From Acidobacteriota bacterium (GTDB lineage: Bacteria; Acidobacteriota; Vicinamibacteria; Vicinamibacterales; UBA2999), in assembly GCA_040754955.1 (NCBI GenBank), contig JBFMCA010000011.1, positions 543 through 64,542 on the forward strand: DNA of 64,000 nucleotides, read 5' to 3'. Shown one piece after another: positions 49,029 to 64,000 of this stretch. A program made the position numbers and the translations under genes. Numbering within the stretch: position 1 is the first letter of the stretch; each line of letters starts with the position of its first letter. The notes under the pieces are model-generated. The model saw only the letters and a program-made list of their open reading frames with translations, had not been told where the DNA came from and did not search any database.

Positions 49029-49034
49029 ATTATC
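49029..49034 (-). promoter_or_regulatory. -10-like GATAAT (extended TAGATAAT), 34 nt upstream of ATG 48994
   Basis: The minus strand reads TTTTCGTAGATAATGTGATTTCGCTTCCCGACCGAGGAGCCCCTGCGCATG, with GAGGAG 10 nt before the ATG. Confidence 0.3.
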
Positions 49035-49094
49035 TACGAAAACCGGCGGGCTCCGGTTCCGCCGGGCCGCCGTGAACCTGATAGGATGCGCGGC

Positions 49095-50180
49095 ATGACG
49101 CGATCCCGCACGGTCGTTCTCCTGTGCCTCGTTCTCCTGGGCGGCGGCGCCCTGGCGCTCGGCGGCTCGGGCCTCGGCGCTGCGCAGGAGGCCTCCCGCC
49201 CGCCCGGCACGAGCTACAGCGGCAAGGCGTTCACCTTCCACACCATCGCCGATGGCGTGTACCACGCCGTCGGGACCGGGGCGCTCGTCGTGATGTCGAA
49301 CGCCACGATCATCGAGGGCGACCGCGATGTGCTCGTGGTCGACTCCCACGTCACCCCCGGCGGGGCCTGGGCGCTCCGGGAGGAGCTCAAGGCGATTACG
49401 CCAAAGCCCATTCGGTACGTGGTCAACTCGCACTTCCACTTCGACCACTCGCACGGGAATCAGATCTACGGCCCCGACGTGGAGATCATCGGCCACGAGT
49501 TCGCGCGCCAGCAGATGGTGGCCGGCAAGTCGCTCGATTCGCCGGCGTACGAGTTCTTCGTGGGTGGTGTCCCGAACACCATTGCTGCGCTCGAGAGCAA
49601 GCTGCAGGCGGCCGTCGACGAGAAGACGCGCGGGGAGCTCGAGCGCCAGCTTGCCATCCAGCGGAATCACCTGGACGGCACCAGGGCGGTGCGGCCGACG
49701 CCGCCGAACGTGACGCTCAGCCACCGCCTGACGCTCTACCGCGGCCAGCGCGAGATCCGGCTGCTGCACCTCGGCCGCGGCCATACGGGCGGCGACCTCG
49801 TCGTCCACCTGCCGAAGGAACGGATCATCGCCACCGGGGATCTGCTGGTGGAGGGCACATCCTACATGGGCGACGCCTACTTCACGGAGTGGATTGCCAC
49901 CATCGAGGCCCTCAAGCAGGTGGACTTCGACACCGTGCTCCCCGGCCACGGCCAGGCGTTCACGGGCAAGGCCAAGCTGGACCACTGGCAGGCCTACCTG
50001 CGGGACTTCTGGGCGCAGGCGCAGAAGTTCCACCAGGCGGGCGTGCCGTGGGAGGAGGCCGCGAAGCAGGTGGACCTGCGCGGGCACGCGGTGAACTACC
50101 CGAACATCCGCGGCGTGGGCCTCACGCCGAATCACGGCATGCGCCGGGCGTACCAGATTCTGGACGGGGTCGTGAAGTAG
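49095..50180 (+). CDS. MBL-fold metallo-hydrolase, secreted
   Basis: It has a signal peptide, the HFHFDHSHG motif and a downstream GHTGGD. AGGA lies 8 nt upstream of ATG 49095; an alternative ATG is at 49086. Confidence 0.85.
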   Translation: MTRSRTVVLLCLVLLGGGALALGGSGLGAAQEASRPPGTSYSGKAFTFHTIADGVYHAVGTGALVVMSNATIIEGDRDVLVVDSHVTPGGAWALREELKAITPKPIRYVVNSHFHFDHSHGNQIYGPDVEIIGHEFARQQMVAGKSLDSPAYEFFVGGVPNTIAALESKLQAAVDEKTRGELERQLAIQRNHLDGTRAVRPTPPNVTLSHRLTLYRGQREIRLLHLGRGHTGGDLVVHLPKERIIATGDLLVEGTSYMGDAYFTEWIATIEALKQVDFDTVLPGHGQAFTGKAKLDHWQAYLRDFWAQAQKFHQAGVPWEEAAKQVDLRGHAVNYPNIRGVGLTPNHGMRRAYQILDGVVK

Positions 50181-50303
50181 AAACCCGCTCGACCGCCCCC
50201 ACCCGTGTCGCCACGGGGAGCACGGCGGCCCGGAGGCACCCAACCGCACCCGTTGTGGTGGCCAGCCTCCGTGCTTCCGGGTTTCCGTGCCCTCGTGGTC
50301 TTC

Positions 50304-51290
50304 TCAGCAGGCGTGCACGATCGCGGCGCTGGTCCCGTGGAGCCACGCCGCGCCGCCGGGCTCGCCGAAGCACGCCGTTGCCGCGGCATCCGCCGTCATG
50401 CAGTCGTCGGCGCGCACCGTGAGGCTGCGCATGGGCGTCACGCGCGGCTCCGCGCTCCGCGGATCCAGCAGGTGGTGATAGCGCCGCCCGCGGTGCTCGA
50501 AGTACTGCACGTAATCGCCGGACGTGGCGACCGCCGCGTCCTCGAGGTCGAACTCGGCCACGAGACGGTCGGGGCGCTCCGGCGACCGGACGCCCACCCG
50601 CCACGGCCTGCCGTCGGCCGCGCGGCCGAGCGCATAGAGGTCGCCGCCGACATTGACCAGCGCATGCGCGATGCCCCGCTCGCGCAGCGCAGCCACGGCC
50701 TGGTCCACGGCATACCCCTTGGCGATGCCTCCGAGATCGATGCCCACGTCGGCGGACGTGAACCGCACGGCCGGGCGGCCCGACCAGGTGCCGACATCGA
50801 GCGCGCGATACAGACCGCGCCCCGCAAAGCGCTGCACGTCGGCGCCGGCCGGCGGCCTCGTCCGCCGCCCCACGTCCCAGAGCGCCACGGCCCCGCCCAG
50901 CGCCGGATCGAAGGCGCCGTCGGTGCGCGTCGCCCAGGTGAGCGCCGCGCCGACCACAGCCGCAGTCTCCCGCGTCACGACCACCGCTTCGGCGGCGGCC
51001 AAGCGGTTGGCGCGGCCGATGTCCGACGCCGCCTGGAACCGCGACATCAGGCCCTCGACGGCCCGGAGACGGGCCAGCGCCGCGTCGATCGCGGCGTGTG
51101 CGGCGCGGGCGTCGCGATGCGCCACCGCGAAATCGGCGATCGTGCCCATCACGGGCACCGTGCGCTGGGCAACCGCGAGCCGCCGCGCCTGCCACGGCAC
51201 CGCGGCGACGACGAGCGCGCCGACGCCGAGCGCCACGAACTCGCGCCGCGTCAGCCCCGACCCAGCCACCGGATCACGATTCGTCATCAT
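50304..51290 (-). CDS. apbE: FAD:protein FMN transferase ApbE (Tat signal)
   Basis: The LTRREFVALGVGA signal, VMGT, GGIAKGYAVD and TSGDY motifs are present. Confidence 0.9.
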   Translation of the reverse strand: MMTNRDPVAGSGLTRREFVALGVGALVVAAVPWQARRLAVAQRTVPVMGTIADFAVAHRDARAAHAAIDAALARLRAVEGLMSRFQAASDIGRANRLAAAEAVVVTRETAAVVGAALTWATRTDGAFDPALGGAVALWDVGRRTRPPAGADVQRFAGRGLYRALDVGTWSGRPAVRFTSADVGIDLGGIAKGYAVDQAVAALRERGIAHALVNVGGDLYALGRAADGRPWRVGVRSPERPDRLVAEFDLEDAAVATSGDYVQYFEHRGRRYHHLLDPRSAEPRVTPMRSLTVRADDCMTADAAATACFGEPGGAAWLHGTSAAIVHAC

Positions 51291-51453
51291 GCCACTCCAC
51301 CGGCTCGCCGCCGCGAGCCTCGTCGGGATGCGCGCACGCGCCCCCGTGGCACGTGCAGTGGGCGCACCTCCCGCGCGCCCGGCCCCGCTCGAGGATTCCG
51401 TACAGCGCGAACAGCGCCGCGAATCCGCCGACAGCGATGAGCACCGACGTCAT
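51274..51453 (-). CDS. Small Cys-rich membrane protein (NqrM- or FeoB-associated-Cys-rich-like)
   Basis: 59 aa: MTSVLIAVGGFAALFALYGILERGRARGRCAHCTCHGGACAHPDEARGGEPVEWHDDES. It has an ATGA overlap with the rnfA stop and a 17-nt overlap with the apbE start. Confidence 0.6.
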   Translation of the reverse strand: MTSVLIAVGGFAALFALYGILERGRARGRCAHCTCHGGACAHPDEARGGEPVEWHDDES

Positions 51454-52028
51454 GCCGTGCTGAAGAGGCCGGCGAAGCCCATGAACGCCAGCGACAGCGC
51501 GCCAGCCAGAATGAGAACCAGGCCCATGTTCCGGGCGGCGTCCGGCACGTCCGCCAGCTCCAGCTGCTCGCGGATCGAGGCCATGAGCACGAGCGCGATG
51601 GTCAGCCCGATGCCCGCGCCAACGGCAAAGAACACGCCCTCGACGAGCCCGTACCCGCGGTTGGTCGAGAAGATCGCCAGCCCCAGAATCGCGCAGTTCG
51701 TGGTGATGAGCGGCAGGAAGATGCCCAGGGCGCGGAAGAGCGCCGGACTCAGCTTCTTGATCGCCATCTCGACGATCTGCACGAGCGAAGCGATGACGAT
51801 GATGAACGCGATGATGCGCAGGTAAGGCGCCGACGGCAGCAGGAACGTGTTGAGCGCCCAGACGGCCACCGCGGTCACCACCATCACGAAGATGTTGGCG
51901 AGGCCCATCCTGAGCGCGGTCTCCACCTTCCCCGACACGCCAAGGAAGGGGCACAGGCCCAGGAACAGCGCCAGCGTGAAGTTGTTGACCACGGCCGCCG
52001 AGACCAGAATCCAGACGAGGTCCGCCAT
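51450..52028 (-). CDS. rnfA: Rnf electron transport complex subunit A
   Basis: MADLVWILVSAAVVNNFTLALFLGLCPFLGVS... 192 aa. Confidence 0.92.
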   Translation of the reverse strand: MADLVWILVSAAVVNNFTLALFLGLCPFLGVSGKVETALRMGLANIFVMVVTAVAVWALNTFLLPSAPYLRIIAFIIVIASLVQIVEMAIKKLSPALFRALGIFLPLITTNCAILGLAIFSTNRGYGLVEGVFFAVGAGIGLTIALVLMASIREQLELADVPDAARNMGLVLILAGALSLAFMGFAGLFSTA

Positions 52029-52029
52029 G

Positions 52030-52692
52030 CTAGGCCGCCTCCTCGACGTCCGCTCCGCCGCTCGACGCCGCACGGGCCCGCGCGTCGCCGCGCCGCGTGT
52101 ACCAGCTGAACAGGAGCAGGAGCACCCCGAGTGTGAGGAACCCGCCGGGCGGAAGGATCATGACGACCCACGGCTCGTAGCGGGGCCCGAACACGCTCAC
52201 CCCCAGGAACGTGCCGCTGCCGAGCACCTCGCGCACCGTCCCCATCAGCAGCATGGTCATTGCGAAGCCCGCCGACATGCCGAGCGCATCCAGGAGCGAT
52301 CGGCCCACGGGGTTCCTCGACGCGAACGCCTCCTGGCGCCCGAGGATGATGCAGTTCACCACGATCAACGCGACGAAGGCGCCGAGCTCCTTGTGCACGA
52401 CCGGCACGTATGCCTCGAGGATCATGTCGGCCATCGTCACGAAGGTCGCGATGATGAGGATGTAGCTCGAAATCCGCACGTCGCTCGGGACGATGCGCTT
52501 GATGGTGGACACGAGCAGGCTCGAACCCACGAGCACGAAGAGCACGGCCGCGCTCATGACGAGGCTGTTGGCGACGCTGTTGGTGACAGCCAGCGCCGGG
52601 CACAGGCCGAGCAGCTGCACCAGGACCGGGTTCTCGCGCCACAGGCCCTTGGTGAACTCCGTCGACGGCGGGGCTGGCTGCCGCGGGCTCAT
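52030..52692 (-). CDS. rnfE: Rnf electron transport complex subunit E
   Basis: GLWRENPVLVQLLGLCPALAVTNS... 220 aa. It has an ATGA overlap with the rnfG stop. Confidence 0.92.
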   Translation of the reverse strand: MSPRQPAPPSTEFTKGLWRENPVLVQLLGLCPALAVTNSVANSLVMSAAVLFVLVGSSLLVSTIKRIVPSDVRISSYILIIATFVTMADMILEAYVPVVHKELGAFVALIVVNCIILGRQEAFASRNPVGRSLLDALGMSAGFAMTMLLMGTVREVLGSGTFLGVSVFGPRYEPWVVMILPPGGFLTLGVLLLLFSWYTRRGDARARAASSGGADVEEAA

Positions 52693-53351
52693 GGCTGCGG
52701 CTCCCGCGGCACATGCGCCGCGATGATCGGTCCGATCCGCTCGAGCGTCGTGTTGATGGCCTGGACCACGGCCCGCGACGAGATGGTCGCGCCGGTGATC
52801 ATCACGAGCTCGTTCGGCAACCCGTCGCCCTGGCCGTCCCGCACGGGCACGAGCGGCGCCCGCACCCGCGCAAACTGCTCGACGAATCCGGCGTCCTTGA
52901 AGATCTTGTCCCCCAGGCCGGGTGTCTCCTTCGAGTCGAGCACGCGCATGCCCAGCAGCTGCGACGACGCGGGGTCGTACCCGAAGAGGAGCCGGATGGT
53001 GTCCTGGAAACCCGGCCCGGCGGCCAGGATGGCGTAGCCGGCCGGCGCCCCGCCGCGCCACCCCAGATACACGGCCTCGGCCGTGTCGGCATCCGCGCCG
53101 GCCGGGAGCGTCGGCGACAGCGTGGTGCCCGTGACGTAGAGGGTGTCGTACCGGTCCGGGGCGGCCAGCACTTCCTGGACGGCGGCCGCCAGCGCCGCCG
53201 CCTTGTTGGCGCGAATCCGGGGCGAGGTCGCCACGAACACGGACACGATCAGCAGGCCGGCGAGCGCGCCGAAGCCGCCCAGCGTGGCGATGAGACGCTG
53301 CGACGAGGCAGATGGACGGGCCGGCGGCGCGGACGGAGTGCCGTGGGTCAT
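52689..53351 (-). CDS. rnfG: Rnf electron transport complex subunit G (FMN-binding)
   Basis: It has an N-terminal TM, ETPGLGDK, and the flavinylation motif ITGATISSRAV. It has an ATGA overlap with the rnfD stop. Confidence 0.9.
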   Translation of the reverse strand: MTHGTPSAPPARPSASSQRLIATLGGFGALAGLLIVSVFVATSPRIRANKAAALAAAVQEVLAAPDRYDTLYVTGTTLSPTLPAGADADTAEAVYLGWRGGAPAGYAILAAGPGFQDTIRLLFGYDPASSQLLGMRVLDSKETPGLGDKIFKDAGFVEQFARVRAPLVPVRDGQGDGLPNELVMITGATISSRAVVQAINTTLERIGPIIAAHVPREPQP

Positions 53352-54352
53352 GCCGACACCTTCTCCGGTCCGGTCCCGAACACCCGCGGCTGGGTCGCCC
53401 GGTTGATGAACGGCACGAGCGCGTTCATGATCAGGATGGCGTACATCACACCCTCGGCCAAACCGCCCCACAGCCGAATCAGCACCACCAGCGCGCCCAC
53501 GCCCGCGCCGAAAATCCAGCTTCCGCGGTTGGTGACCGGCGAGGTCACCATGTCGGTCGCCATGTACACCGCGCCGAGCATGAGGCCGCCGGAGAACAGC
53601 ATGAACTGCGGCGTGGGATACCGGGCGGCGTCAATCGCATGGAATACGCCGCTGAGAGCCGCCACCGTCAGGAGGATGCTCACCGGGATGCGCCAATTGA
53701 GGTAGTTCTTGACGGCGAGATAGCCGCCGCACACGAGGATCAGCAGCGCGCTCGTCTCGCCCAGCGATCCCGCCGTGGTGCCGAGCGCCAGGTCGCGGAC
53801 GGGCGTCGCGATCCGCTCGAACTTCATCAAGCCGAGCGGCGTGGCCGTGGTGACCGCATCCACCTGGCTCGACATGAGGGGCAGCGCGAAGTTGTCGCCG
53901 CGCAGCGACCACCACGAGACGCCGTCGACCGCCGGCCACGTCGTGAGGGCCACGGGAAACGCCGCCTGCAGGAACGCCCGTCCGAGCAGCGCCGGATTGA
54001 ACACGTTCTGGCCCAGGCCGCCGAAGATGGTCTTGCCGAATCCGATGCCGAAGGCGCCTCCGAGCGCCGCCATCCAGAGCGGCAGCCCCGCCGGCAGGCA
54101 CAGCCCCAGCAGCAGGCCCGTGATGACGGCGGAGCCGTCGCCGACCACGCCCGTGCGGCCCCACGCCGCTTCGGCCCCGACGGCGCCAGCGACCGACGCC
54201 AGGATCACGAGCAGCGCGCTCGGGCCGAAGGCGTAGCCGGCGAAAACCACGATGGGCACCAGGCTCCCGACGACCGACCACATGATGGTGGGCGTCGAAT
54301 CGCGGCTGCGGAGGTGCGGCGACGCGGTGACGAGCAGGCGCGGGTCGGTCAT
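53348..54352 (-). CDS. rnfD: Rnf electron transport complex subunit D
   Basis: 334 aa: SPHLRS..., NPALLGRAF, and YMATDMVTSP (FMN-attachment Thr). It has an ATGA overlap with the rnfC stop. Confidence 0.92.
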   Translation of the reverse strand: MTDPRLLVTASPHLRSRDSTPTIMWSVVGSLVPIVVFAGYAFGPSALLVILASVAGAVGAEAAWGRTGVVGDGSAVITGLLLGLCLPAGLPLWMAALGGAFGIGFGKTIFGGLGQNVFNPALLGRAFLQAAFPVALTTWPAVDGVSWWSLRGDNFALPLMSSQVDAVTTATPLGLMKFERIATPVRDLALGTTAGSLGETSALLILVCGGYLAVKNYLNWRIPVSILLTVAALSGVFHAIDAARYPTPQFMLFSGGLMLGAVYMATDMVTSPVTNRGSWIFGAGVGALVVLIRLWGGLAEGVMYAILIMNALVPFINRATQPRVFGTGPEKVSA

Positions 54353-55677
54353 GCGGCCGGCTTTCGCTGCCGCAGGGCGGCCTTCGCCGCCGCAAACTGC
54401 TGCGACAGGGGGATGTTGGACGGGCACACGTAGGAACAGCACCCGCACAGCATGCAGTCGTTGAGGTGGTAGGTCGCGGCCATCTCGTCGTACCGCCCGG
54501 CCGCGGCCAGGGTGCCGAGCTGCTGCGGGTTGAGGAAGACCGGACAGGCGTCCAGACAGTGGCCGCACCGGATGCACGGATAGGACGCCTGCGGCTTGCA
54601 CTCCCGCGCCGCGAGGACGATGACGCCGGTCGTGCCCTTCGTGAGCGGCGTGTCGAGATTGGCCTGCGCCGCTCCCATCATCGGGCCGCCAAACACGATC
54701 TCGCGCGCGTCGTCGGTCAGCCCGCCGCAGGCCTCCAGCAGGTCGCCGAGCCGCGTACCGACCGGCACGATGAGGTTGGCGGGCTTGCGCACGCCGAGGC
54801 CGGTGACCGTCACGATTCGCTCCACGAGGGGCAGGCCCGTCTCGAAGACCTCGGCAATCGTCGCCACCGACGCGGCATTCTGCACGACGACCCCGACGTC
54901 CATCGGCAGCTTGCCCGACGGGACCTCGCGGCCCGTCACGGCCTCGATGAGCATCTTCTCGGCGCCCTGGGGATACTTCACCGTCAGGGGCAGGACGGTG
55001 ACGTCGAGGTCGTCGGGCCGGGTGCGGGCCAGCGCGTCGATGGCGTCGGGCTTGTTCCGCTCGACGCCGATGACGGCCTTCGACACGCCCAGAATGCGCA
55101 TCATGATCCGGATGCCGAGGTGCACCCGCCCCGGGTATTCGACCATCGACCGGTGATCGGTCGTCAGGTACGGCTCGCACTCGCAGCCGTTCACCAGGAT
55201 CATCGAGATGGGCTTGTCCGGGGGCGGCTTGAGCTTGACGTGCGTGGGGAACGCCGCGCCGCCCAGCCCCACGACGCCGGCCTGCTGCACCGCGGCGAGC
55301 AGCCCGGCCCGATCGAGCCCGCGCCAGTCGGGCACCAGGCGGGGGCGGGGGATCTGTCCGGAGAACGGCTCCACGGCGAGGCGCAGGGCCGGCTTGAAGG
55401 TTCCGTCCGGATGCGGGCTCAGCCCGAGCTCCATGATGGTACCGCTCGCCGACGCGTGGACGGGCGAGGACACCCACCCGTCGGGCTCCGCAATCAGGTC
55501 GCCGCGCTCGACCCGATCGCCCGCGCGCACGATCGGCTTCGCCGGCGTGCCCGCATGCTGGCTCAGCGGGAGCACCACCTCGGCGGGGTACGGCAGCCGC
55601 CGGATCTTCAGATGCGCCGTGAGCTGCTTCAGCTCCGGCGGATGCACGCCGTGCCGGAACGTCAGCGTCTCGAACAC
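54349..55677 (-). CDS. rnfC: Rnf electron transport complex subunit C
   Basis: 442 aa from a GTG preceded by GGGAGG 8 nt upstream. FRHGVHPPE, GLGGAAFPTHVK, and two 4Fe-4S motifs (CIRCGHCLDACP, CMLCGCCSYVCP) are present. Confidence 0.9.
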   Translation of the reverse strand: MFETLTFRHGVHPPELKQLTAHLKIRRLPYPAEVVLPLSQHAGTPAKPIVRAGDRVERGDLIAEPDGWVSSPVHASASGTIMELGLSPHPDGTFKPALRLAVEPFSGQIPRPRLVPDWRGLDRAGLLAAVQQAGVVGLGGAAFPTHVKLKPPPDKPISMILVNGCECEPYLTTDHRSMVEYPGRVHLGIRIMMRILGVSKAVIGVERNKPDAIDALARTRPDDLDVTVLPLTVKYPQGAEKMLIEAVTGREVPSGKLPMDVGVVVQNAASVATIAEVFETGLPLVERIVTVTGLGVRKPANLIVPVGTRLGDLLEACGGLTDDAREIVFGGPMMGAAQANLDTPLTKGTTGVIVLAARECKPQASYPCIRCGHCLDACPVFLNPQQLGTLAAAGRYDEMAATYHLNDCMLCGCCSYVCPSNIPLSQQFAAAKAALRQRKPAA

Positions 55678-55750
55678 CGCCGAGGCCTCCCGATGTACGC
55701 CATGCCGTCGCTCGCCGATTCCGATTCCGGTGCCCGCCGCTCCTGCCGCA

Positions 55751-58700
55751 TCAGTTGAACCGCTCCGCCCGCTTGACCCACTTCTCCAGGTCCTTCTCCT
55801 TGGGGTTGAGCGGCGTGCCGGGGTGGATGATGCCCACCGGACACTTCTCGGCGGCCATGACGATCTCGCGGAAGGTACCCGCGGAGGCATCCTTGATGTA
55901 CGCCTGCTTCTTCTCGTTGTAGGCGAACAGGCGCTTGTTGAGGTTCGTGCACTCGTTGCACGCCGTGCAGAGCTCCGAATCGATGTACGGCTCGAGGCCC
56001 ACGCCCTCGTCGTCTGCGGCCGCGGGCGGGGCCACGGCCGGGCTGGCCGCACCCGCCGCGGCAGCCGGCGCCGGTGCCGGCGCCCCCGCGGGCACGACGG
56101 GCGAGGGCGGCGGGGCCGCCGTGCCGCCGCCGTTCCCGCGGCCCAGGTCCACCTTTCCGAGCGGCTCCAGGTTCCGCATCTCCTGGACGCGGCGGAGCAG
56201 GTCGGCGATTGTCTCCTGGCCGTTCGCGGTGGCGCGCACCAGACCCTCGGCCATGCGTCGCGCCACGACGGCGGGATACCTGGTGCGCAGGTCGGCCACC
56301 GTCGCGGCATGCGCCGCCTCGAGCGCCGCGATCTCGGTTCCGAGAGTCGCCTGGACGTCGGCGGCGATGCGTTCGCGGATGGCCGGGGGCACGTCGAGCC
56401 CTGCCATGTGCCGCAACTGCTGCCAGAGAGACACGCGATCGTCCGCCAGCTCGACGATCTCGCGCGACGCCGCGAGCCGCACCAGGTGCCCGTCGCAGTC
56501 GCGGGCGTGGATGAACGGAATGCGGCCCTCGCGCTCGGCCGGCGACGCCGCCACGTACTCGTCGAAGCGCATGAGCGCCGCCGGATCCGCGTCGTCGGCG
56601 ACCACCTTGAAGTGCTTCCTGAAGCGCGACTCGGTGGCCGCCCAGTCGGCGATGGTCACGGGAAGCGTGAGCACCTGCGTCGCGCCGTCATTGTCGGTGT
56701 AGCGGAGGTCGTAGGTGGGCCACACCTCGTCGACCATGGGGTTGCCGTCGAGGCTCAGGCGATCGGCGAGATGCTTTCCGGCCGCTGGGTCGTACACCAG
56801 GAGCGGGAACGCGCGCGCTTCGAGGGCCAACCGGGCGGCGTCGGTCGCCGCGTCGTCGCCCAGGCCGTGCTCGGGCGGACACGGACAGTTGAGCACGAAG
56901 ACCGCCGGGTACCGCGACTGCAGCCCGCGCAGCACGCCCCCCAGCAGGTGCGACGGCGCCGCCTGGGACGACTGCACAAGGAACACGTTGCGGTGGGCGA
57001 TGGCCAGGAGCGCAAGCTCCTTCCGCGTCTCGGTCTTGCCGTGCTGGGCGCGGCCCCAGGCCGCCATGTCGCTCACCTGGCCGGTGAAGCCGCTCGTGCA
57101 CGCCTGCCCGCCGGTGTTCGAATAGACCTGCGTGTCGAGCACGACGACCCGGACCGGCTTGCCCGAGGCCAGGAGCCGCGACAGGTTCTGGAAGCCGATG
57201 TCCAGCATCGCGCCGTCACCGCCCACCGCGAGGATGGGCGGACACATCGCGAACTCCTCGTCGGTGAACTGGTGCCAGTCGAACCGGCCGAAGAACCCGT
57301 CGTGCTCGGCCGGGTCGTACCTGCCCTCGAGTTCGAGCTCGGCCCTGCGGACGGCGGAGAACCCGATCGCCATCTTGCGCATGTGCCCTTCGAACAGGCC
57401 GATCGCAATCGACGGCGCGTCCTGGAACAGGTGGTTGACCCACGGGAAGGGGTACGGGTTGTAGGGATACGTGCTGCCCCAGACCGACGAGCATCCCGTG
57501 GCGTTCGCGATGCCAGTGGTTGCGCGGCCCTTGCCGCTCGGTCCTTCGACGTACCGCCACCGGAGGTCCTTCAGCTCCTCGAGCAGGCGGGCGAGGCGGT
57601 CTACCTCGGCCTGCTTGGCCGGCGCCAGCGGGATATCGACGCGCCCGGCCGACGGCCGGTGTGTCTTCCCGACGGAGGCCAGCGACGCGTCGGACGCGAG
57701 CAGGCCGCGGGCCTTTCTGTCGAGCTCCGCGATGAGCGTGTCGAGTCGCTCCACGTAGCGCTTCACGCGCGGCAGCATCGTCGCATTGATGGCCGACACG
57801 ACGAGGTGCATGACGGTCTTCTCGCCGCAGCCCATGCAGGCGCCGTCGCCGCCCACCATGGAGCGGTAGTTGCGCTGCTTGAGCAGCAACGAGGACAGCA
57901 CGCCGATGCCCTCGTCCACGCTCGCGACGTTCACGTAGCGGTCGTGGGTCTCGGGCAGGAACTGCCAGAGGTGCCAGTTCCGCCGGAGCTTCTCGACCAC
58001 CTCGTCGGTCTGCTTGACGGTCGTGAGCGCCCCGTCAGGGCAGACGCGCACGCAGATGTTGCAGCCTTTGCACGCGTCGGGGTTGACGGTGATGGACAGC
58101 AGACCACCCGTCCCCTTCTCCTTCGACTCGGGCACGTCGAAGAAGGGCGCGGTCTTGGCGAGCGGGAACTCGGCCAGCGCGGAGTACACCGGCGCGAACT
58201 CGGCGTCCAGCGCGTGCCGGCGTTCCGGGTCCATGCCCAGCTTGCCGACCACCGTGTCGTAGGCGCCCGACACCACCTGGCCGAACGTCGTGAAGGGCAC
58301 GCCCTTCAGCGTCCGACGGACCTCGGCGGCGAGCGGCTTCAGGATCTGGCGCACCCGGTCCCGTCGCCGCCCGTTCTCGGACGACCGCACGGCGGCCTCG
58401 AGCACCTCGACGACGTCGCTGACCACGCCGGGAATGGCGGCGTCGGGACACTGCACCCAGCACTGGCTGCATCCCGTGCACTTGTCCGGAATGAACTCCG
58501 GGACCTCGAAGCGGACGTTCGTCATGTCGCGGATGGTGCTGGTGGCGGCCGGCATGGCCGAGATCGCCGCGTACGGATCGGCAATGCCGTCCTCGCCCAT
58601 CTTGCAGAGGACGCAGACCTGCTCCCAGAACCGGCCCCCGTGGCCGATGCCGTGCGCGACGTCGGTCCCGCCGAGGGTGGCCGGCATCTGGGGCACGGTG

Positions 58701-60847
58701 CCCACATAGGCGTCCCCGTCGAGCGTCAACGTGGCGGCATCCACCTCCACCAGCTCGTCGTAGCCGCGCCGGATGACGCGGACGTTGTCCTCGACGACCT
58801 TCTCGCCGAGGTGACCGAACTTCTTCTGCAGCTGCCGGCGAATCCCGTCGAAGATCGTCCGCTCGTCGAGCTTCTCGGCCTTGGCGAGCGGGGACGCGCG
58901 GAAGAACGCGCCCATGAACGCTGCACCCTGCATGCGGTACCTGAGCTCGGGATCGCTGGCCTCGTCGCTGGCGATCTTGAACCCGTCGATGAGGCAGAAG
59001 GTGTACCGGTGGTCGATGATGCGCTTGCGCGCCCACGGCGGGAGACTCCGCCAGACCTCCGCGACGGGCCGGTCGCCCTGCATGATGAACACGCCGCCAT
59101 CCTGCAGGCCGGCCAGCGGGTCGGAGTGCTTGAAGACGTTGGGATCGGGCGACAGCACCACGGAGACGAACTTCAGCTCGGCGTTGACCCGGATCGGCTC
59201 GCGCGCGAGCGTGGCGTAGAAGGTCGTCGGCTGCCCCTTCTTCTCGGACCCGTACTTCGGATTGGCCTGGATATGCAGGCCGCAGAGGTCGGCGGCCGTC
59301 TGCGCCAGGTTCTTGCCGGTCGTGATCGCGCCCCAGCCGCCGACCGAGTGGATGCGGATGGAGATCGCGCCCGGCGGCAGGAGGTTCACGGGCGCGGCCG
59401 GCCGCAGCGACAGCTCGCCCAGCTGCGGGTACGACTCGAGCAGATCCTCCTGCCAGATCTGCAGCTTCGGAAACCGCGTCTCGGGCCGCACGAAGTCGAT
59501 GCCCAGGTAGAACTGCCGGCGCCGGGCGCCGCCCTCGAGCATGTTGTCGACGGCGGCGACGAGATCGGCCGGCTGCAGATCGCGGCTGCCAAGGCCGAAG
59601 CAGCCGGAGAAGAACGCCGGCATCTGCTGCGGGCGGCAGGCCGCCAGCCCGGGGTACGGCGGCGAGGCAGGCGTCCGGCCGTTCTCGAGCGCCTTGTACA
59701 TGGCCGCGCGGATCTCCCTGAGCAGCGGCAGGTCGACCGCCAGCGGCTGGTCGGTCCGCTCGAGCACCGTCACGCCGCGCTTCCCGGCGAGCATCGCCGT
59801 AATCAGGTCGGCCGGGAACGGCCGGAACATCGTGACGTTGAGCACGCCGACCCGCAGCTTGCGGGTCGCGCGCAGGTGGTCGACCACCGCCTCGCAGTTC
59901 GGAACCACGCTGCCCTGGCCGACGAGCACCCACTCCGCATCCTCCAGGCGGTAGCCCGCGGCGCGCGCGTACATGCGGCCCGTGAGCGCCGCGTACTCGG
60001 CCATCGCCCGATCGGCAAGCTCGGGAAGATGGTCGAAGTAGAAGGGGCGCTGCGCCGCCACGCCCTGCGCGTAGCTGTCCTGGTTCTGCACCACGCCCAG
60101 CATGGCCGGGTAGTCCAGGTTGAACAGCTCGGGCACACGCCGGCGCTGCCTGCCGAACACCCAGCGCTGCGCCGGCGTGGGCGATTCGATGAGGTCCGCC
60201 GGATCGCCCAGGTACTCGCGCACGAGCTCGCGTTCCGGCATGGCCATCGTCTCGATCACGTGGCTCGTCAGGAACCCGTCCTGGGCGAGGATGCCCGGGT
60301 TGAGCGAGAGCTCCGCGATGCGGTGGGCAACCAGGTTCAGGTCGGCCGCTTCCTGGACATTCTTGGCGAACAGCTGGAAGAACCCGGTGTCGTCGACGGC
60401 GTGGTAGTCGTCGTGGCCGGCATGGACGTTGAGCGCGTGCTTGGTGATGGCCCGGGCGGCGATGTTCAGGACGTAGGTGAGGCGCTTGCCCACCGCGGCG
60501 TAAAGCGACTCGTGCATGTAGACGATGCCCTGCCCGCTCGAGAAGTTCGTCGCGCGCAGCCCCGTCATGCTCATCCCGGCGGTGACCGCAGCCGCCGCGT
60601 GCTCGCCCTCCGGCTCGAAGAACAGCAGCGACCGACCGTGCACGTTCAGCGTGCCGGCGGCGACGGCCTGCGCCCACCCCTCGCCCATCTGCGTGGACGG
60701 CGTGATCGGGTACGCGCCGGCGCCCTCGCTGGCGGCCGTCTCCATCTCGACGATGGCGCCGCTGCCGTCGGTGGCCGTCCGGACACCCGGATACTTGGGA
60801 GCCTGGCGTCCGGCCGCCGGGGGCCGCGCCGTCGCAGTCGTGATCAT
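55751..60847 (-). CDS. por: Pyruvate:ferredoxin (flavodoxin) oxidoreductase, unusually large (1698 aa), with a Pro/Ala linker and C-terminal single-cluster ferredoxin domain
   Basis: YPITPST (domain I), SVGGWGAITTGKNL (domain III), CTGCSQCWVQCP and CKGCNICVRVCP (ferredoxin domain), and GGDGAMLDIGFQNL (TPP) are present. The C-terminus carries CTACNECT...CPVGII. The ATG at 60847 overlaps the rnfB stop (ATGA) and is preceded by GGAAGGAG. Confidence 0.9.
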   Translation of the reverse strand: MITTATARPPAAGRQAPKYPGVRTATDGSGAIVEMETAASEGAGAYPITPSTQMGEGWAQAVAAGTLNVHGRSLLFFEPEGEHAAAAVTAGMSMTGLRATNFSSGQGIVYMHESLYAAVGKRLTYVLNIAARAITKHALNVHAGHDDYHAVDDTGFFQLFAKNVQEAADLNLVAHRIAELSLNPGILAQDGFLTSHVIETMAMPERELVREYLGDPADLIESPTPAQRWVFGRQRRRVPELFNLDYPAMLGVVQNQDSYAQGVAAQRPFYFDHLPELADRAMAEYAALTGRMYARAAGYRLEDAEWVLVGQGSVVPNCEAVVDHLRATRKLRVGVLNVTMFRPFPADLITAMLAGKRGVTVLERTDQPLAVDLPLLREIRAAMYKALENGRTPASPPYPGLAACRPQQMPAFFSGCFGLGSRDLQPADLVAAVDNMLEGGARRRQFYLGIDFVRPETRFPKLQIWQEDLLESYPQLGELSLRPAAPVNLLPPGAISIRIHSVGGWGAITTGKNLAQTAADLCGLHIQANPKYGSEKKGQPTTFYATLAREPIRVNAELKFVSVVLSPDPNVFKHSDPLAGLQDGGVFIMQGDRPVAEVWRSLPPWARKRIIDHRYTFCLIDGFKIASDEASDPELRYRMQGAAFMGAFFRASPLAKAEKLDERTIFDGIRRQLQKKFGHLGEKVVEDNVRVIRRGYDELVEVDAATLTLDGDAYVGTVPQMPATLGGTDVAHGIGHGGRFWEQVCVLCKMGEDGIADPYAAISAMPAATSTIRDMTNVRFEVPEFIPDKCTGCSQCWVQCPDAAIPGVVSDVVEVLEAAVRSSENGRRRDRVRQILKPLAAEVRRTLKGVPFTTFGQVVSGAYDTVVGKLGMDPERRHALDAEFAPVYSALAEFPLAKTAPFFDVPESKEKGTGGLLSITVNPDACKGCNICVRVCPDGALTTVKQTDEVVEKLRRNWHLWQFLPETHDRYVNVASVDEGIGVLSSLLLKQRNYRSMVGGDGACMGCGEKTVMHLVVSAINATMLPRVKRYVERLDTLIAELDRKARGLLASDASLASVGKTHRPSAGRVDIPLAPAKQAEVDRLARLLEELKDLRWRYVEGPSGKGRATTGIANATGCSSVWGSTYPYNPYPFPWVNHLFQDAPSIAIGLFEGHMRKMAIGFSAVRRAELELEGRYDPAEHDGFFGRFDWHQFTDEEFAMCPPILAVGGDGAMLDIGFQNLSRLLASGKPVRVVVLDTQVYSNTGGQACTSGFTGQVSDMAAWGRAQHGKTETRKELALLAIAHRNVFLVQSSQAAPSHLLGGVLRGLQSRYPAVFVLNCPCPPEHGLGDDAATDAARLALEARAFPLLVYDPAAGKHLADRLSLDGNPMVDEVWPTYDLRYTDNDGATQVLTLPVTIADWAATESRFRKHFKVVADDADPAALMRFDEYVAASPAEREGRIPFIHARDCDGHLVRLAASREIVELADDRVSLWQQLRHMAGLDVPPAIRERIAADVQATLGTEIAALEAAHAATVADLRTRYPAVVARRMAEGLVRATANGQETIADLLRRVQEMRNLEPLGKVDLGRGNGGGTAAPPPSPVVPAGAPAPAPAAAAGAASPAVAPPAAADDEGVGLEPYIDSELCTACNECTNLNKRLFAYNEKKQAYIKDASAGTFREIVMAAEKCPVGIIHPGTPLNPKEKDLEKWVKRAERFN

Positions 60848-61707
60848 CGTCCGGCTCCTTCCAACACGGTGGCGAGGCGCGCGCGTCCGAGCTGCTGCGC
60901 GCCGTCGACCCACACGATCGCGCCCGTCGGACAGCGCCGGATGGCGTCCGGCGAGGCCGCGGCGTTCCTGGAGTAGTCGATCACCGCGAGCCCGCTCTCG
61001 ATGCTGATGAGGTTCGGCGCGCCGTCGGCGGCGCACCGGCCGCACCCGTTGCACGCCACGGCGCACACGCCGGTGGCCGCCTCGCCGTCGAGCAGGTTGC
61101 GGCACTGCACCAGCAGATGCTGGTCGGTCGGCATCAGCGTGAACAGGTCCTTGGGACAGGCCTCCACGCAGTCGTTGCAGGCCGTGCACCTTTCGGGGAT
61201 CACGACCGGCAGGCCGACGTCGTTCATGTAGATCGCGTCGAAGTCGCAGGCCTCCCGGCAGTCCGCGAGGCCGAGGCAGCCCCACGTGCACGCCTTACCG
61301 CCGCCGGCCACGGCGGCCGCGGCCCGGCACGTCTGAAGGCCCACGTAATCGGCCCGGTGCGGCGCGACGTCCGAGCCGCCGGCACAGAGCAGCCGCGCGA
61401 CCCGGGGCGTCGCAGCGCCGACGTCGACCCCGAGATAGCCCGCGATGTCCTCGCGCATGTCGGGTGACGCGACGGTGCAGTTGGCCGGCTGGATCGCGCC
61501 GGCGACGAGCTGCTCGGCAAAGGCCCGGCACCCGGCCAGACCGCAGGCGCCGCAGTTGTTGCCGGGGAGGAGGCCGGCCACGGCGTCGATGCGCGGATCC
61601 TCCCAGACGTACAGCTTGGTGCGCGCCACGGCGATGGCCGCCGCGAAGACGGTGCCGACGCCGCCGAGGATGGCGGCAGACACCACGAAGGCGGACACAT
61701 CAGGCAC
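60844..61707 (-). CDS. rnfB: Rnf electron transport complex subunit B
   Basis: It has an N-terminal TM, LPGNNCGACGLAGCRAFAEQL, CTWGCLGLADC, and 4Fe-4S ferredoxin motifs (CTACNDCVEACP, CNGCGRCAADG...CPTGAI). Confidence 0.88.
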   Translation of the reverse strand: MPDVSAFVVSAAILGGVGTVFAAAIAVARTKLYVWEDPRIDAVAGLLPGNNCGACGLAGCRAFAEQLVAGAIQPANCTVASPDMREDIAGYLGVDVGAATPRVARLLCAGGSDVAPHRADYVGLQTCRAAAAVAGGGKACTWGCLGLADCREACDFDAIYMNDVGLPVVIPERCTACNDCVEACPKDLFTLMPTDQHLLVQCRNLLDGEAATGVCAVACNGCGRCAADGAPNLISIESGLAVIDYSRNAAASPDAIRRCPTGAIVWVDGAQQLGRARLATVLEGAGR

Positions 61708-61719
61708 CGGTCAGCCTCC

Positions 61720-62712
61720 TCAGAGGTCGGCCTGCTGCAGCAGCCAGGCCGCGAGCTTGTCGACCGGGTCCGCCGCCTCGGCCGCGGGCAGGGGCGGCGC
61801 CGGAGCGGCGGTTGCGACCCCGCCGGCGTGCAGCGCGCGCAGCTGCTCGAGCTCCTCGGTCTGCTGCGCGACCGTGACACCGCCGCTTCGCTTGCGGTGA
61901 TTCAGCTCGGGCATCTGCAGCTCGCCCAGCCGCACCCCCAGCGTCGCGCCAGCCGCGGGGTCGTGCACGAACCGGGCGGAGCGCTCGGAGACGAGCGCGA
62001 CGATGCCCGGCCCGCTCCAGGCGGCCAGCCGGGCGACCACCGACGCGTCGGCCGCCTGCGCGACGAACGTCCGCGGCGTGACCAGCCGCACCAGCGGCGC
62101 CGGGCTCGTGTCGCCGCGCGCCACGAGCACGATTCGCATGCCGCCGTCGAGGCACTCGGCCAGGCCCGCGGGGCGGAGGTCTGTGCCGTCTACTTCAATC
62201 ACGAGAGGTGGCGCCACCGCGCGCTCAGCCTGGCTCCACAGCGTGAACGGGAACCGGATGAGCCAGCCGTCGTGGTCGGACGGCCGGTACCGGCCGCTCC
62301 GCGCCGCGTCGGCGACCCGGGCGGCCCCGATGCCCCGTCCGAGGTCGGCCAGCCGTTCCATCGTGGCGGTGTACAGCGACTCGCCCGGCGCCACATCGAG
62401 CACGAAGCCCTCGTCGCCGCGGGCGGCGACTGCGGCCAGCGCCTCGAGCGCGCGGGCCATCACGGCGTGCACCGCGGGCGAGGCCGCCGGCTCGACCCCA
62501 AGCACGCCGGCCAGCCGCTGCACGTCGATGTGCCTGGCGCCCAGGGGTCCGAGCTCGGCGGCGAGCACGGCCAGGCGGTCGTCGGCCGCCGCGCGGTGGG
62601 TGTCGAGGTAGACCCGCACGTCCTCGAGCGTCGCCGCCACGGCGGACCGGAAGGTTTCCCGAGGGCGCGTGAGCGCGGCCAACGCCGCGGCGGTGCGGGC
62701 ATCAGACGGCAT
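61720..62712 (-). CDS. Hypothetical protein (330 aa) between korB and rnfB
   Basis: The ORF has protein-like, Ala/Leu/Arg-rich composition and a single Cys. Its ATG at 62712 overlaps the korB 3' end by 11 nt, and its stop lies 12 nt before the rnfB start. I recognise no family. Confidence 0.6.
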   Translation of the reverse strand: MPSDARTAAALAALTRPRETFRSAVAATLEDVRVYLDTHRAAADDRLAVLAAELGPLGARHIDVQRLAGVLGVEPAASPAVHAVMARALEALAAVAARGDEGFVLDVAPGESLYTATMERLADLGRGIGAARVADAARSGRYRPSDHDGWLIRFPFTLWSQAERAVAPPLVIEVDGTDLRPAGLAECLDGGMRIVLVARGDTSPAPLVRLVTPRTFVAQAADASVVARLAAWSGPGIVALVSERSARFVHDPAAGATLGVRLGELQMPELNHRKRSGGVTVAQQTEELEQLRALHAGGVATAAPAPPLPAAEAADPVDKLAAWLLQQADL

Positions 62713-63652
62713 ACTTGTCGAACTCCTCGTTGAGCCGCGCGATCTTCTCGTGCGCCGTGTAGACGCGCTGCGCGCGCAGCTCCTCGTAGCGCTCACGCGA
62801 GTCGTCCTTGAAGAAGATGCCGAGGCGGATCTTCCCGGCGCCCTCGGCCAGGTGCCGCGCGACGTCGAGGTCCCGCGGATCGTGCACGCGCTTCTGGGTG
62901 TAGATGCGGTCCAGCTCCGGCGCCTCGACGCCGTCGGGATGCACCAGCATCTCGACGAGCTTCGGATTGCGGACCGCTTCCTGGTAGAGGTCGTCCGTGT
63001 ACTGAGGGCAGCGCTGGAGGATCCGGACGAACGAGAACCCGCGATGCCGGTACGCGGCCTGGATCGTCGCGAAGAGATGCGACGGAATCCAGTCGGCCGT
63101 CTGCGCCACGAACGACGCGTTCGAGATGCCCAGCGTCGCCGCCAGCGGGTTGAGGGGGATCAGGAAGCTTCCCTTTGGCTGCGTGTTGCTCGGGTAGTGC
63201 TGCGGCGTCGTCGGCGAGGTCTGGTTCTTCGTCAGCCCGTAGATGCCGTTGTCGAGCATCAGGGCGACCATCCGCACGTTGTAGCGGACCGCGTGGATCC
63301 AGTGGCCCGCGCCAATCGAACAGCAGTCGCCATCGCCCATCACGACGAACACGTGCAGGTCGGGCCGCCGCAGCCGGACGCCCGTCGCGATGGGCAGAGC
63401 CCGCCCATGAATGCCGTGGAAGCCGTAGGTGGTCAGGTAGTGCGGGAACCGGCTCGCGCAGCCGATGCCGGAGACGAACACCGTCTTTTCCGGCGGCAAT
63501 TGCTCCGCCTCGAGCAGGCGCTGCACCGCCGCCAGGATGGCGTGGTCGCCGCAGCCCGGACACCAGCGCGCGACCGCGCCGGTGTAGTCTTCCATGCTCC
63601 AGCTGCGGTCGTCGTCGACGTCGCAGCCGAGCAGCGAACACGACAGCGGCAT
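62702..63652 (-). CDS. korB: 2-oxoacid:ferredoxin oxidoreductase beta subunit (TPP-binding)
   Basis: WCPGCGDHAIL, GIGCASRFP and MGDGDCCSIGAGH are present. 316 aa. It has a TGATG overlap with the korA stop. Confidence 0.9.
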   Translation of the reverse strand: MPLSCSLLGCDVDDDRSWSMEDYTGAVARWCPGCGDHAILAAVQRLLEAEQLPPEKTVFVSGIGCASRFPHYLTTYGFHGIHGRALPIATGVRLRRPDLHVFVVMGDGDCCSIGAGHWIHAVRYNVRMVALMLDNGIYGLTKNQTSPTTPQHYPSNTQPKGSFLIPLNPLAATLGISNASFVAQTADWIPSHLFATIQAAYRHRGFSFVRILQRCPQYTDDLYQEAVRNPKLVEMLVHPDGVEAPELDRIYTQKRVHDPRDLDVARHLAEGAGKIRLGIFFKDDSRERYEELRAQRVYTAHEKIARLNEEFDKYAV

Positions 63653-64000
63653 CACGGCTGCCTCCCCGGCAACATGGACTTGATGCCGTCGTAGATGCTC
63701 CCGGGCCGCAGGGGCTGGCCCGGCACGCGGGTCCAGCAGTCCACGTCCACCAGCGCGTGGGCGCGCAGCAGCCAGGCGAGCTGCCCCATCCGGCGGTTCT
63801 CGGGCGTGATGTACGGATCGCCGAGCCGATCGGAGTAGTTGATCTCGACGGTCGCCACCTTGCGGAAGCGCCCGAAGATCTCCTTGAGGCCGGGCTCGAG
63901 CGGGGACAGGAAGCGAAGCTGCACGGACGACACGCGCAGCCCCTCGGCGCGGACCCGGTCCACCGCCTCTTCGATGGCCCCCTTGGTGGACCCCCATCCC
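63652..64000 (-). CDS. korA: 2-oxoacid:ferredoxin oxidoreductase alpha subunit, C-terminal part (5' end outside window)
   Basis: The frame is open to the window edge: ...WGSTKGAIEEAVDRVRAEGLRVSSVQLRFLSPLEPGLKEIFGRFRKVATVEINY... Confidence 0.85.
   Translation of the reverse strand, partial: GWGSTKGAIEEAVDRVRAEGLRVSSVQLRFLSPLEPGLKEIFGRFRKVATVEINYSDRLGDPYITPENRRMGQLAWLLRAHALVDVDCWTRVPGQPLRPGSIYDGIKSMLPGRQP

Follow-up and report, generated by a model that had tools for sequence, protein, structure and literature searches.

A giant pyruvate:ferredoxin oxidoreductase-type enzyme with a tethered ferredoxin domain is encoded inside conserved rnf gene clusters of diverse bacteria

The 64,000-nucleotide stretch of Acidobacteriota DNA analysed here (hereafter the window; contig JBFMCA010000011.1, positions 543 to 64,542; G+C content ~71%) contains at its end a cluster of 12 minus-strand genes. 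This cluster joins the six genes of the Rnf complex, a membrane ferredoxin:NAD+ oxidoreductase, to the gene of a giant single-chain 2-oxoacid:ferredoxin oxidoreductase (OFOR) of the pyruvate:ferredoxin oxidoreductase (PFOR) type, which lies between rnfB and rnfC. Rnf is usually pictured as trading electrons with a free ferredoxin pool. The presence of a ferredoxin-reducing enzyme within the rnf operon, equipped with a leashed ferredoxin of its own, suggests instead that a central metabolite and an ion pump are connected by fixed wiring. It can be proposed, with modest confidence, that the cluster is a conserved, self-contained operon encoding a dedicated path for electrons from 2-oxoacids to NAD+ through Rnf.

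All 12 genes and their coordinates (Table 1) were recovered from six-frame open reading frames, translations and inspection of start sites. The initial annotation of this DNA, made from the sequence alone, had described the same one-strand cluster with the same 11 junctions, and these are reproduced exactly. From korA to apbE, the junctions are -1, -11, +12, -4, +73, -4, -4, -4, +1, -4 and -17 nt, eight of the 11 being overlaps; the 3′ end of korA overlaps the ATG of korB by 1 nt, and the rnfB stop codon overlaps the PFOR start as ATGA. The 73-nt gap between the PFOR gene and rnfC (55678-55750) contains GGGAGG 8 nt upstream of the rnfC GTG. A scan of positions 49000-64000 for promoter- and terminator-like sites detected no terminator-like site in this gap and neither kind of site anywhere on the coding strand, and the folding of the gap is not better than that of shuffled sequences (z = +1.0), which agrees with the earlier statement that it lacks a hairpin. 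The overlapping stop and start codons, together with the lack of detectable internal promoter- or terminator-like sites, strongly imply that the cluster is co-expressed, as had been suggested, and it is presumably co-transcribed. The gene names given previously are also supported in every case by Pfam and NCBIfam, some of them with scores under the subfamily cut-offs.

The association of the PFOR gene with rnf is widespread. Scanning a single representative genome of each species by pattern detected at least 527 PFOR loci, the best 80 of which were fetched and compared, with neighbouring genes located by tblastn using the window proteins. Homologues of the PFOR number in the thousands; the best 120 are all 1650-1720 aa long, and the named hosts among them belong to Gemmatimonadota, Rokubacteria, Myxococcota and Deltaproteobacteria. 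In the fetched loci, rnfC is found immediately 3′ of the PFOR gene in 48 of the 49 cases in which the downstream flank reaches 1.5 kb or more (the gap having a median of ~35 nt), and rnfB immediately 5′ of it in 53 of the 66 with a sufficient upstream flank. The 13 loci that lack an upstream rnfB are mostly of the Bacteroidota type, and six of these 13 carry rnfB downstream. The rnfB-PFOR-rnfC order, the conservation of which the initial annotation had treated as decisive, is therefore kept in most loci; its description of the rnf operon as interrupted by the PFOR gene is apt for one conserved order, but not for the Bacteroidota loci without an upstream rnfB, including the six in which rnfB follows the block. 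One Gemmatimonadota metagenome-assembled genome (MAG) has ~6.8 kb inserted between the PFOR gene and rnfC (locus L053, 15061-21893).

The linkage spans about eight phyla (Gemmatimonadota, Planctomycetota, Acidobacteriota, Rokubacteria, Myxococcota, Gammaproteobacteria, Hydrogenedentota and Bacteroidota) and comes in two main forms. In what we denote clade G, with PFORs 60-85% identical to that of the window (Gemmatimonadota, Planctomycetota, Rokubacteria, Thermoanaerobaculia and one MAG labelled Geobacter), the gene order is that of the window, namely korA-korB, the gene for a 330-aa protein, rnfB-PFOR-rnfCDGEA, the gene for a small Cys-rich peptide and apbE. In clade B, with PFORs ~50% identical (Bacteroidota, Acidobacteriota, Gammaproteobacteria, Myxococcota, Hydrogenedentota and “Multivoradales”), the order is (rnfB)-PFOR-rnfCDGEA-peptide-FNR, where FNR denotes a gene for a ferredoxin-NADP+ reductase-like protein; the six Bacteroidota loci with a displaced rnfB have it after the FNR gene. 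Across loci, the identity of the PFOR to its window counterpart co-varies with that of RnfC (r = 0.95), RnfD (0.93) and RnfB (0.85), whatever the host phylum, and accordingly the PFOR-rnf block can be regarded as one heritable, transferable unit. An assembly chimera or chance juxtaposition, which the initial annotation had named as a danger, can be dismissed almost entirely given that the same order and tight junctions recur in dozens of independent assemblies, including contigs >1 Mb and one host, Aquiflexum sp. TKW24L (locus L071), that is not labelled as a MAG.

The feature of the PFOR that gives the linkage its possible meaning is a ferredoxin domain at the C-terminus. It was missed in the initial annotation, of which the linkage and the likely co-expression stand. 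The domain matches Pfam Fer4_13 (E = 9.6e-7) and ferredoxin I in the PDB (1dax, E = 5.4e-5); its cysteines C1627, C1630, C1633 and C1669 are invariant in the 12 homologues compared, and the first cysteine of the CxxCxxC...CP signature always lies 72 residues before the C-terminus of the protein, both in 120 homologues and in clade B. The Ala/Pro-rich linker that precedes it varies from 10 to 59 aa and is not conserved in sequence among the 120 homologues, and it is of low complexity in clade B as well. In an AlphaFold2 (AF2) model of the ~335-aa extension that ends in this domain, an alpha/beta fold (predicted local distance difference test score, pLDDT, 75-91) is followed by a 50-residue helix, a stretch of ~60 residues with pLDDT ~30 (model residues 196-258) and a small domain (pLDDT 64-82), so that the linker is predicted to be disordered. 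The ferredoxin domain was found in 69 of the 80 loci, 10 of the 11 loci without it end at a contig edge, and every complete Rnf-linked PFOR carries it. A deltaproteobacterial MAG (locus L056, 9899-14626) encodes a complete homologue of 1575 aa, 62% identical, that ends ahead of the linker and the ferredoxin domain; this is the only locus with full 10-kb flanks that is devoid of any rnf gene. Neighbouring genes at L056 encode an XRE-type regulator and an enoyl-CoA hydratase-like protein.

These observations bear on the alternative that PFOR and Rnf are co-regulated, physically independent enzymes, with the ferredoxin domain serving as an extra internal relay or as a donor to soluble acceptors, and the gene linkage reflecting shared regulation of ferredoxin metabolism rather than a docked complex. 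As we understand it, PFOR and Rnf cooperate via free ferredoxin in clostridia and Bacteroides. In glutamate-fermenting clostridia, pyruvate-derived reduced ferredoxin feeds Rnf-dependent energy conservation (PMC12174285, available text). The deduction of docking from genes and the variable gene order, with rnfB before or after the block and the 6.8-kb insertion between PFOR and rnfC in L053, are also compatible with independent enzymes. Such an arrangement nevertheless appears unlikely in view of the near-absolute linkage in some eight phyla, the co-variation of the PFOR and Rnf sequences, and the fact that the sole complete homologue without the ferredoxin domain, that of L056, is also the sole one without Rnf. 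Moreover, in one locus (L081), an apparently inactive paralogue of the PFOR that is encoded directly before rnfB bears the same tethered domain (see below). PFOR and Rnf thus probably work as one unit.

The main body of the giant PFOR comprises the Pfam domains POR_N, PFOR_II, POR, Fer4 and TPP_enzyme_C. Domains I-III are followed by a two-cluster ferredoxin domain, in which an insert of ~90 aa separates the two cluster motifs, by a thiamine pyrophosphate (TPP)-binding domain that begins with an insert of ~100 aa, and by the C-terminal extension; further inserts in the N-terminal part also contribute to the ~470 residues by which the protein exceeds the PFORs of solved structure. The nearest of these are the enzymes of Desulfovibrio africanus (1b0p/7plm, E = 5e-88) and Moorella thermoacetica, with E-values for the two in the range of ~1e-88 to 1e-84. 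Against the TIGR02176 equivalog model, the protein scores 409 bits, short of the cut-off of 911, and is therefore classified as a divergent PFOR-type OFOR rather than as an equivalog. The catalytic apparatus is preserved in all 12 homologues compared: the TPP motif G1210-D1211-G1212 is invariant, as are the cysteines C790/793/796/800, C926/929/932/936 and C1004/1007/1119/1250 of three [4Fe-4S] sites (those of the proximal cluster being assigned from what we take to be their arrangement in the D. africanus structure). The same holds for T49 and R132, which align with T31 and R114 of D. africanus PFOR (7plm), and for N1244 within a VYSNTGGQ motif, which presumably corresponds to D. africanus N996. 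L139, invariant in the 12 sequences, and V141, nearly so, are aligned to L121 and I123, respectively, in the D. africanus enzyme.

Because the catalytic motifs and the pyruvate-contact residues are kept, the substrate is likely to be a small 2-oxoacid, most simply pyruvate. Should the enzyme act on another 2-oxoacid (2-oxoglutarate or one of branched-chain, aromatic or glyoxylate type), the module would serve amino-acid catabolism, and the low equivalog score, the extra length relative to solved PFORs and the presence in the operon of a second OFOR, the substrate of which may differ from that of the first, could all be read in this way. The T49/R132 and L139/V141 correspondences, the placement of N1244 and the fact that every one of the nearest relatives of known structure acts on pyruvate make such a substrate improbable.

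In the path proposed here, the giant PFOR would oxidise pyruvate or a similarly small 2-oxoacid with coenzyme A (CoA), and electrons would travel from TPP through the three [4Fe-4S] clusters to the fourth cluster in the C-terminal ferredoxin domain, which, swinging on its flexible Ala/Pro-rich linker, would hand them to the polyferredoxin subunit RnfB. Rnf would then reduce NAD+ at RnfC and export Na+ or H+, the net reaction being that of pyruvate dehydrogenase with an ion gradient in addition. A second 2-oxoacid could be fed into the same path by KorAB, the two-subunit OFOR of the cluster, possibly positioned by the 330-aa protein, which appears to be an inactive paralogue of a PFOR domain (see below); maturation of the Rnf flavins would fall to ApbE, and that of a suggested Rnf iron or Fe-S centre to the Cys-rich peptide. 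In this scheme, it is by inference that the ferredoxin domain is docked on RnfB, that electrons run in the oxidative sense, that Na+ or H+ is the coupled ion and that pyruvate is the substrate. An even more tentative extension holds that PFOR is docked on RnfB via the tethered ferredoxin in a membrane-bound, ion-pumping pyruvate:NAD+ oxidoreductase supercomplex that needs no free ferredoxin and has spread horizontally as an energy-conserving alternative to pyruvate dehydrogenase, with KorAB recruited by the inactive adaptor; the hosts, in at least eight phyla, are presumably largely aerobic or facultative.

Several considerations weigh against a dedicated oxidative path. The case for a PFOR-Rnf complex, which the initial annotation proposed and which is plausible, is built on gene linkage and domain architecture. 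The joint absence of the ferredoxin domain and of rnf, although it points the same way, comes from one locus, L056. The loci compared were the best-matching 80 out of a minimum of 527, so that remoter relatives may differ in arrangement, and two of the compared loci, L051 and L081, already depart from the usual one. The likely substrate is deduced from three conserved residues in a protein that scores far under the equivalog cut-off (409 vs 911 bits). The sequence itself does not fix which way the electrons run. Several of the hosts, such as Aquiflexum, belong to groups that we assume to be mainly aerobic, and in aerobes Rnf usually runs in reverse, as do Rnf1 of Azotobacter and Rsx of Escherichia coli. 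The reverse mode in Azotobacter is described in the available text of PMC12174285.

The corresponding rival scheme is the same module operating backwards: the ion gradient would drive electrons from NADH to the tethered ferredoxin, with PFOR acting as a pyruvate synthase (acetyl-CoA + CO2 to pyruvate) and KorAB as a 2-oxoacid synthase, and the module would support anaplerotic or mixotrophic CO2 assimilation. To our understanding, the reactions of PFOR and KorAB are reversible and Rnf runs backwards in diazotrophs as well as in aerobes, and the hosts among Gemmatimonadota, Cyclobacteriaceae and Flavobacteriaceae are presumably mainly aerobic or facultative. The Azotobacter precedent (PMC12174285, available text) belongs here too, as do the shielding from O2 that a tether would afford to a cluster near -500 mV and the occurrence of two carboxylating-capable enzymes within one operon. 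On the other hand, the sequence does not set the direction in favour of this scheme either; no other gene of carbon fixation, such as that for ATP-citrate lyase, was seen either in the conserved block or in those portions of the window that were annotated; and the plant-type FNR of clade B suits the use of reduced ferredoxin more than its production. Reverse operation seems doubtful, if a serious competitor to the oxidative path.

The clade-B FNR-like protein (285 aa) has the FAD- and NAD(P)-binding domains of plant-type ferredoxin-NADP+ reductases (NAD_binding_1, E = 1.1e-8) and is similar to the solved structures of the maize and spinach enzymes (E = 4e-25 to 2e-24); no counterpart was found in the window by tblastn. 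Its gene is in keeping with a module that first generates reduced ferredoxin and then uses it up in the reduction of NAD+ as well as NADP+. The gene directly follows rnfA and the Cys-rich peptide in L065, L070, L072 (19119-21183), L074, L076 and L079, and also in L063, L068, L069 and L077, and so occupies the position that nqrF holds after nqrE. NQR, the Na+-translocating NADH:quinone oxidoreductase, is reported to have arisen in Bacteroidota by duplication of an rnf operon and replacement of rnfB by a gene of the FNR family (PMC12174285, available text). The similarity of position may be a coincidence, since the PDB search places the FNR-like protein nearer to plant FNR than to NqrF-type proteins.

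Table 1. Genes and domains of the rnf-PFOR cluster, in the direction of transcription (window coordinates)
Feature	Coordinates	Strand	Length (aa)	Description
korA (3′ end only)	63651..64000	-	115 (C-terminal)	alpha subunit of two-subunit 2-oxoacid:ferredoxin oxidoreductase; runs off the window
korB	62702..63652	-	316	beta (TPP-binding) subunit of two-subunit 2-oxoacid:ferredoxin oxidoreductase
330-aa protein gene	61720..62712	-	330	probable degenerate paralogue of PFOR domain VI (sequence profiles)
rnfB	60844..61707	-	287	GTG start; N-terminal membrane anchor, FeS domain, polyferredoxin domains
PFOR gene	55751..60847	-	1698	giant single-chain PFOR-type 2-oxoacid:ferredoxin oxidoreductase; 5.1-kb gene
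PFOR ferredoxin domain	55754..55969	-	~1627-1698 (residues)	C-terminal single-cluster domain, CxxCxxC...CP
PFOR linker	55970..56170	-	~1560-1626 (residues)	Ala/Pro-rich, low complexity
rnfC	54349..55677	-	442	GTG start; NADH/FMN-binding subunit of Rnf
rnfD	53348..54352	-	334	membrane subunit
rnfG	52689..53351	-	220	FMN-binding subunit
rnfE	52030..52692	-	220	membrane subunit
rnfA	51450..52028	-	192	membrane subunit
Cys-rich peptide gene	51274..51453	-	59	one transmembrane helix, then CxxCxCxxxxC
apbE	50304..51290	-	328	flavin transferase (Pfam ApbE)

All six Rnf subunits find their best matches among Rnf models. RnfC (TIGR01945, 515 bits vs a cut-off of 246; Pfam RnfC_N, Complex1_51K and SLBB), RnfD (TIGR01946, 298 vs 207 bits) and RnfE (TIGR01948, 226 vs 213 bits; Pfam Rnf-Nqr, E = 3e-62) exceed the respective cut-offs. 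The other three fall just under theirs and pass the Pfam domain cut-offs, namely RnfA (TIGR01943, 222.5 vs 229 bits; Rnf-Nqr, E = 9e-54), RnfG (TIGR01947, 96 vs 102 bits; FMN_bind, E = 7.6e-13) and RnfB (61 vs 69 bits, with PRK07118/RnfB models scoring best; FeS domain PF04060, E = 2.2e-11, and Fer4 domains). RnfB is the ferredoxin-facing subunit of the complex, and ApbE attaches FMN to RnfD and RnfG. RnfG contains a TGAT flavinylation motif (residues 186-189), and RnfD contains ATDMVTSP (residues 264-271), which resembles what we take to be the covalent-FMN site of RnfD/NqrB, the motif definitions being likewise assumed. The flavin transferase itself (Pfam ApbE, E = 4.5e-71) is kept after the Cys-rich peptide in the clade-G loci.

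A small open reading frame with at least three cysteines, encoding a membrane helix and a Cys cluster, is located between rnfA and apbE in all 26 clade-G loci tested, and a counterpart follows rnfA in the clade-B loci; a strict search for CxxCxC(2-5)C recovered the peptide from no more than 11 of the 44 loci, and it was the relaxation to three or more cysteines that gave 26 of 26. The only Pfam match of the window peptide is FeoB_associated, below threshold (E = 0.012), and identity with NqrM (DUF539) was rejected, no NqrM match being obtained at E-values up to 10. In Vibrio cholerae, NqrM seems to be needed to place the intramembranous [2Fe-2S] cluster in NQR (PMC12174285, available text). 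The peptide resembles NqrM in architecture, with a single membrane helix and a Cys cluster, and in its place in the operon. By analogy, it is proposed to be an iron or Fe-S maturation factor for Rnf.

The 330-aa protein encoded between korB and rnfB matches no Pfam or NCBIfam model. Among its 493 homologues, those that bear a source name are without exception annotated as hypothetical, and the 120 listed ones are devoid of Pfam domains. The AF2 model is confident (pLDDT 86.7), and a Foldseek search of it against the PDB gave no match with E <0.09. Residues 113-171 match residues 1151-1206 of the PFOR (BLASTP, E = 9e-8), and the family profile aligns with PFOR residues 1155-1378 (hhalign, E = 2.9e-4, probability 40%), skipping the TPP/Mg-binding loops and the cluster cysteine. 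The protein also aligns over 263 columns (hhalign probability 80%, E = 1.5e-5) with an 841-aa protein of locus L081 (P0282, 9001-11526), the gene of which sits in the same slot between korB and rnfB and the product of which matches PFOR residues 1152-1698, tethered ferredoxin included, at 34.5% identity. Because of these matches to the PFOR and to the 841-aa protein, the 330-aa protein is read as most probably a shortened, catalytically inactive paralogue of the TPP-binding domain (domain VI) of the PFOR. The window copy would then most probably have lost the ferredoxin and kept the disordered Ala/Pro stretch and the conserved C-terminal helix: at the C-terminus (61720-61810), a segment predicted to be disordered (residues 300-313, AF2 pLDDT <50) leads into a helix that hardly varies, DPVDKLAAWLLQQADL, an arrangement that looks like a tethered docking peptide. 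The protein could possibly act as an adaptor, perhaps for KorAB.

Paralogues of the longer type are not confined to one locus. In some lineages (L081, 9001-11526; L051, 8219-9163), the korB-rnfB slot is occupied by an apparently inactive, ~841-aa paralogue of the C-terminal half of the PFOR, equipped with a linker and a tethered ferredoxin domain of its own, and downstream of rnfB there is another PFOR-like gene with an identity of only ~30%. A search with the C-terminal extension of the PFOR retrieved 455 clusters at E <1e-30, many of them proteins of ~820-880 aa, and dozens of relatives in this size range are present among the protein representatives. The idea that these ~840-aa matches represent a split PFOR was discarded, since in L081 the protein is a separate paralogue encoded between korB and rnfB.

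As regards KorAB itself, the KorA fragment at the window edge shares 63-81% identity with the 3′ ends of open reading frames for ~620-690 aa located upstream of korB in related loci, and the L081 counterpart (644 aa) has the POR_N and POR domains. KorB, 62-82% identical across the clade-G loci, contains TPP_enzyme_C (E = 1.9e-26) and scores 230 bits against the NCBIfam PorB_KorB model, below the cut-off of 262. The two-subunit architecture implied by the name korAB in the initial annotation is thus borne out; 2-oxoglutarate, which the name assumes as the substrate, is a candidate, the best equivalog matches being to generic 2-oxoacid models.

On its downstream side, the cluster is taken to end with apbE, because a convergent plus-strand gene ends at 50180 and none of the genes beyond is conserved in related loci. 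The convergent gene (48831-50180), separated from apbE by 123 nt in which no terminator-like site was detected, encodes a metallo-beta-lactamase-fold protein with an HFHFDH motif and a probable signal peptide. Genes past apbE (a 461-aa hypothetical protein, an AMP-binding enzyme and the region 48995-50303) were considered as further operon members and rejected on this ground. The 461-aa protein gene (47609-48994, minus strand) has a strong coding bias (G+C of third codon positions 0.96) and its product lacks a Pfam match; the AMP-binding, acyl-CoA synthetase-like gene (46019-47590) adjoins it. Elsewhere in the window, there are three tandem genes for PmbA/TldD-family metallopeptidases of 534, 451 and 530 aa (21822-26459, minus strand), a minus-strand group encoding a BatA-domain protein, a MoxR-type AAA ATPase and a 1199-aa MacB/FtsX-like permease (30290-37095), and plus-strand genes at 13015-17041 and 43094-45038 for acyl-CoA carboxylase carboxyltransferase and biotin carboxylase and for an isochorismatase-family (nicotinamidase-like) protein paired with nicotinate phosphoribosyltransferase (NAD salvage).

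If the proposed path is real, it would represent an energy-conserving route of pyruvate oxidation, or in the reverse case a gradient-driven synthesis of pyruvate, in lineages abundant in soil, sediment and marine habitats, such as Gemmatimonadota and Bacteroidota, the ferredoxin metabolism of which has, to our knowledge, been little studied. It would also provide a natural donor-Rnf pair for structural study of ferredoxin docking on RnfB, and, since one host, Aquiflexum sp. TKW24L (L071), lacks the MAG label, experiments are feasible. Three uncharacterised conserved accessory proteins come with the system: the putative inactive PFOR-domain paralogue, the Cys-rich peptide and the 841-aa variant with its tethered ferredoxin. 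Each component belongs to an established family, be it Rnf, the PFOR-type OFORs, ApbE or FNR. In agreement with the initial annotation, which knew of no account of this arrangement, no report of an rnf operon that encloses a PFOR gene was found in the literature searched, which included the available text of PMC3534657, PMC6704655 and the 2025 review PMC12174285 and left most subscription journals outside its scope. The features that appear to be unreported are a donor enzyme inside the rnf operon, a giant PFOR with a tethered fourth-cluster ferredoxin, the inactive paralogue with or without a tether, and the conserved Cys-rich peptide.

Canonical rnf operons (rnfCDGEAB in Acetobacterium and Clostridium, rnfABCDGE in Rhodobacter and as rsx in E. 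coli, rnfBCDGEA in Bacteroides and Chlorobium) encode the same six subunits, and the order rnfB...rnfCDGEA is that of the Bacteroidota/Chlorobi type (PMC3534657, available text). The difference here is the 5.1-kb PFOR gene placed between rnfB and rnfC, or ahead of rnfC, and the addition of KorAB, the presumed inactive PFOR-domain paralogue, the Cys-rich peptide and ApbE; the review PMC12174285 (available text) makes no mention of these differences. With the homodimeric PFORs of D. africanus (1B0P/7PLM) and M. thermoacetica (6CIN), the window enzyme shares the domain order I-II-III-(IV)-V-VI, the TPP motif, the three [4Fe-4S] sites and T49/R132, whereas it is ~470 residues longer, with two domain inserts and the ~335-aa extension that bears the fourth-cluster ferredoxin.

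The Na+-NQR operon of Vibrio, nqrABCDEF-apbE-nqrM, has a homologous membrane core and likewise a gene for a small Cys protein beside apbE at its end; the window peptide, however, has no NqrM match, is encoded before apbE instead of after it, and owes its suggested role to analogy. In Methanosarcina, mmcA is located in the rnf operon. The product, the multihaem cytochrome MmcA, is an extra lineage-specific redox subunit of the Methanosarcina Rnf (bioRxiv 10.1101/2022.07.20.500911, available text). That partner is a cytochrome on the acceptor side, whereas the partner in the window is a ferredoxin-reducing enzyme on the donor side.

The closest parallels to the tether itself come from other 2-oxoacid-oxidising enzymes. 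In pyruvate:NADP+ oxidoreductase (PNO) of Euglena and Cryptosporidium, PFOR is fused at its C-terminus to an electron-accepting partner, a cytochrome-P450-reductase-like flavoprotein, and NADP+ is reduced directly, without energy conservation. PNO and the window enzyme resemble each other in the wiring of pyruvate oxidation to pyridine-nucleotide reduction by C-terminal fusion; in the latter, however, it is a small ferredoxin that is fused, and electrons would reach NAD+ via a membrane ion pump. The lipoyl domains of the E2 subunits of 2-oxoacid dehydrogenases swing on Ala/Pro-rich linkers, and here too a small carrier would be borne on a variable, disordered Ala/Pro linker of a 2-oxoacid-oxidising enzyme, although the carrier in the giant PFOR is an Fe-S domain and the resemblance is one of architecture, not of ancestry.

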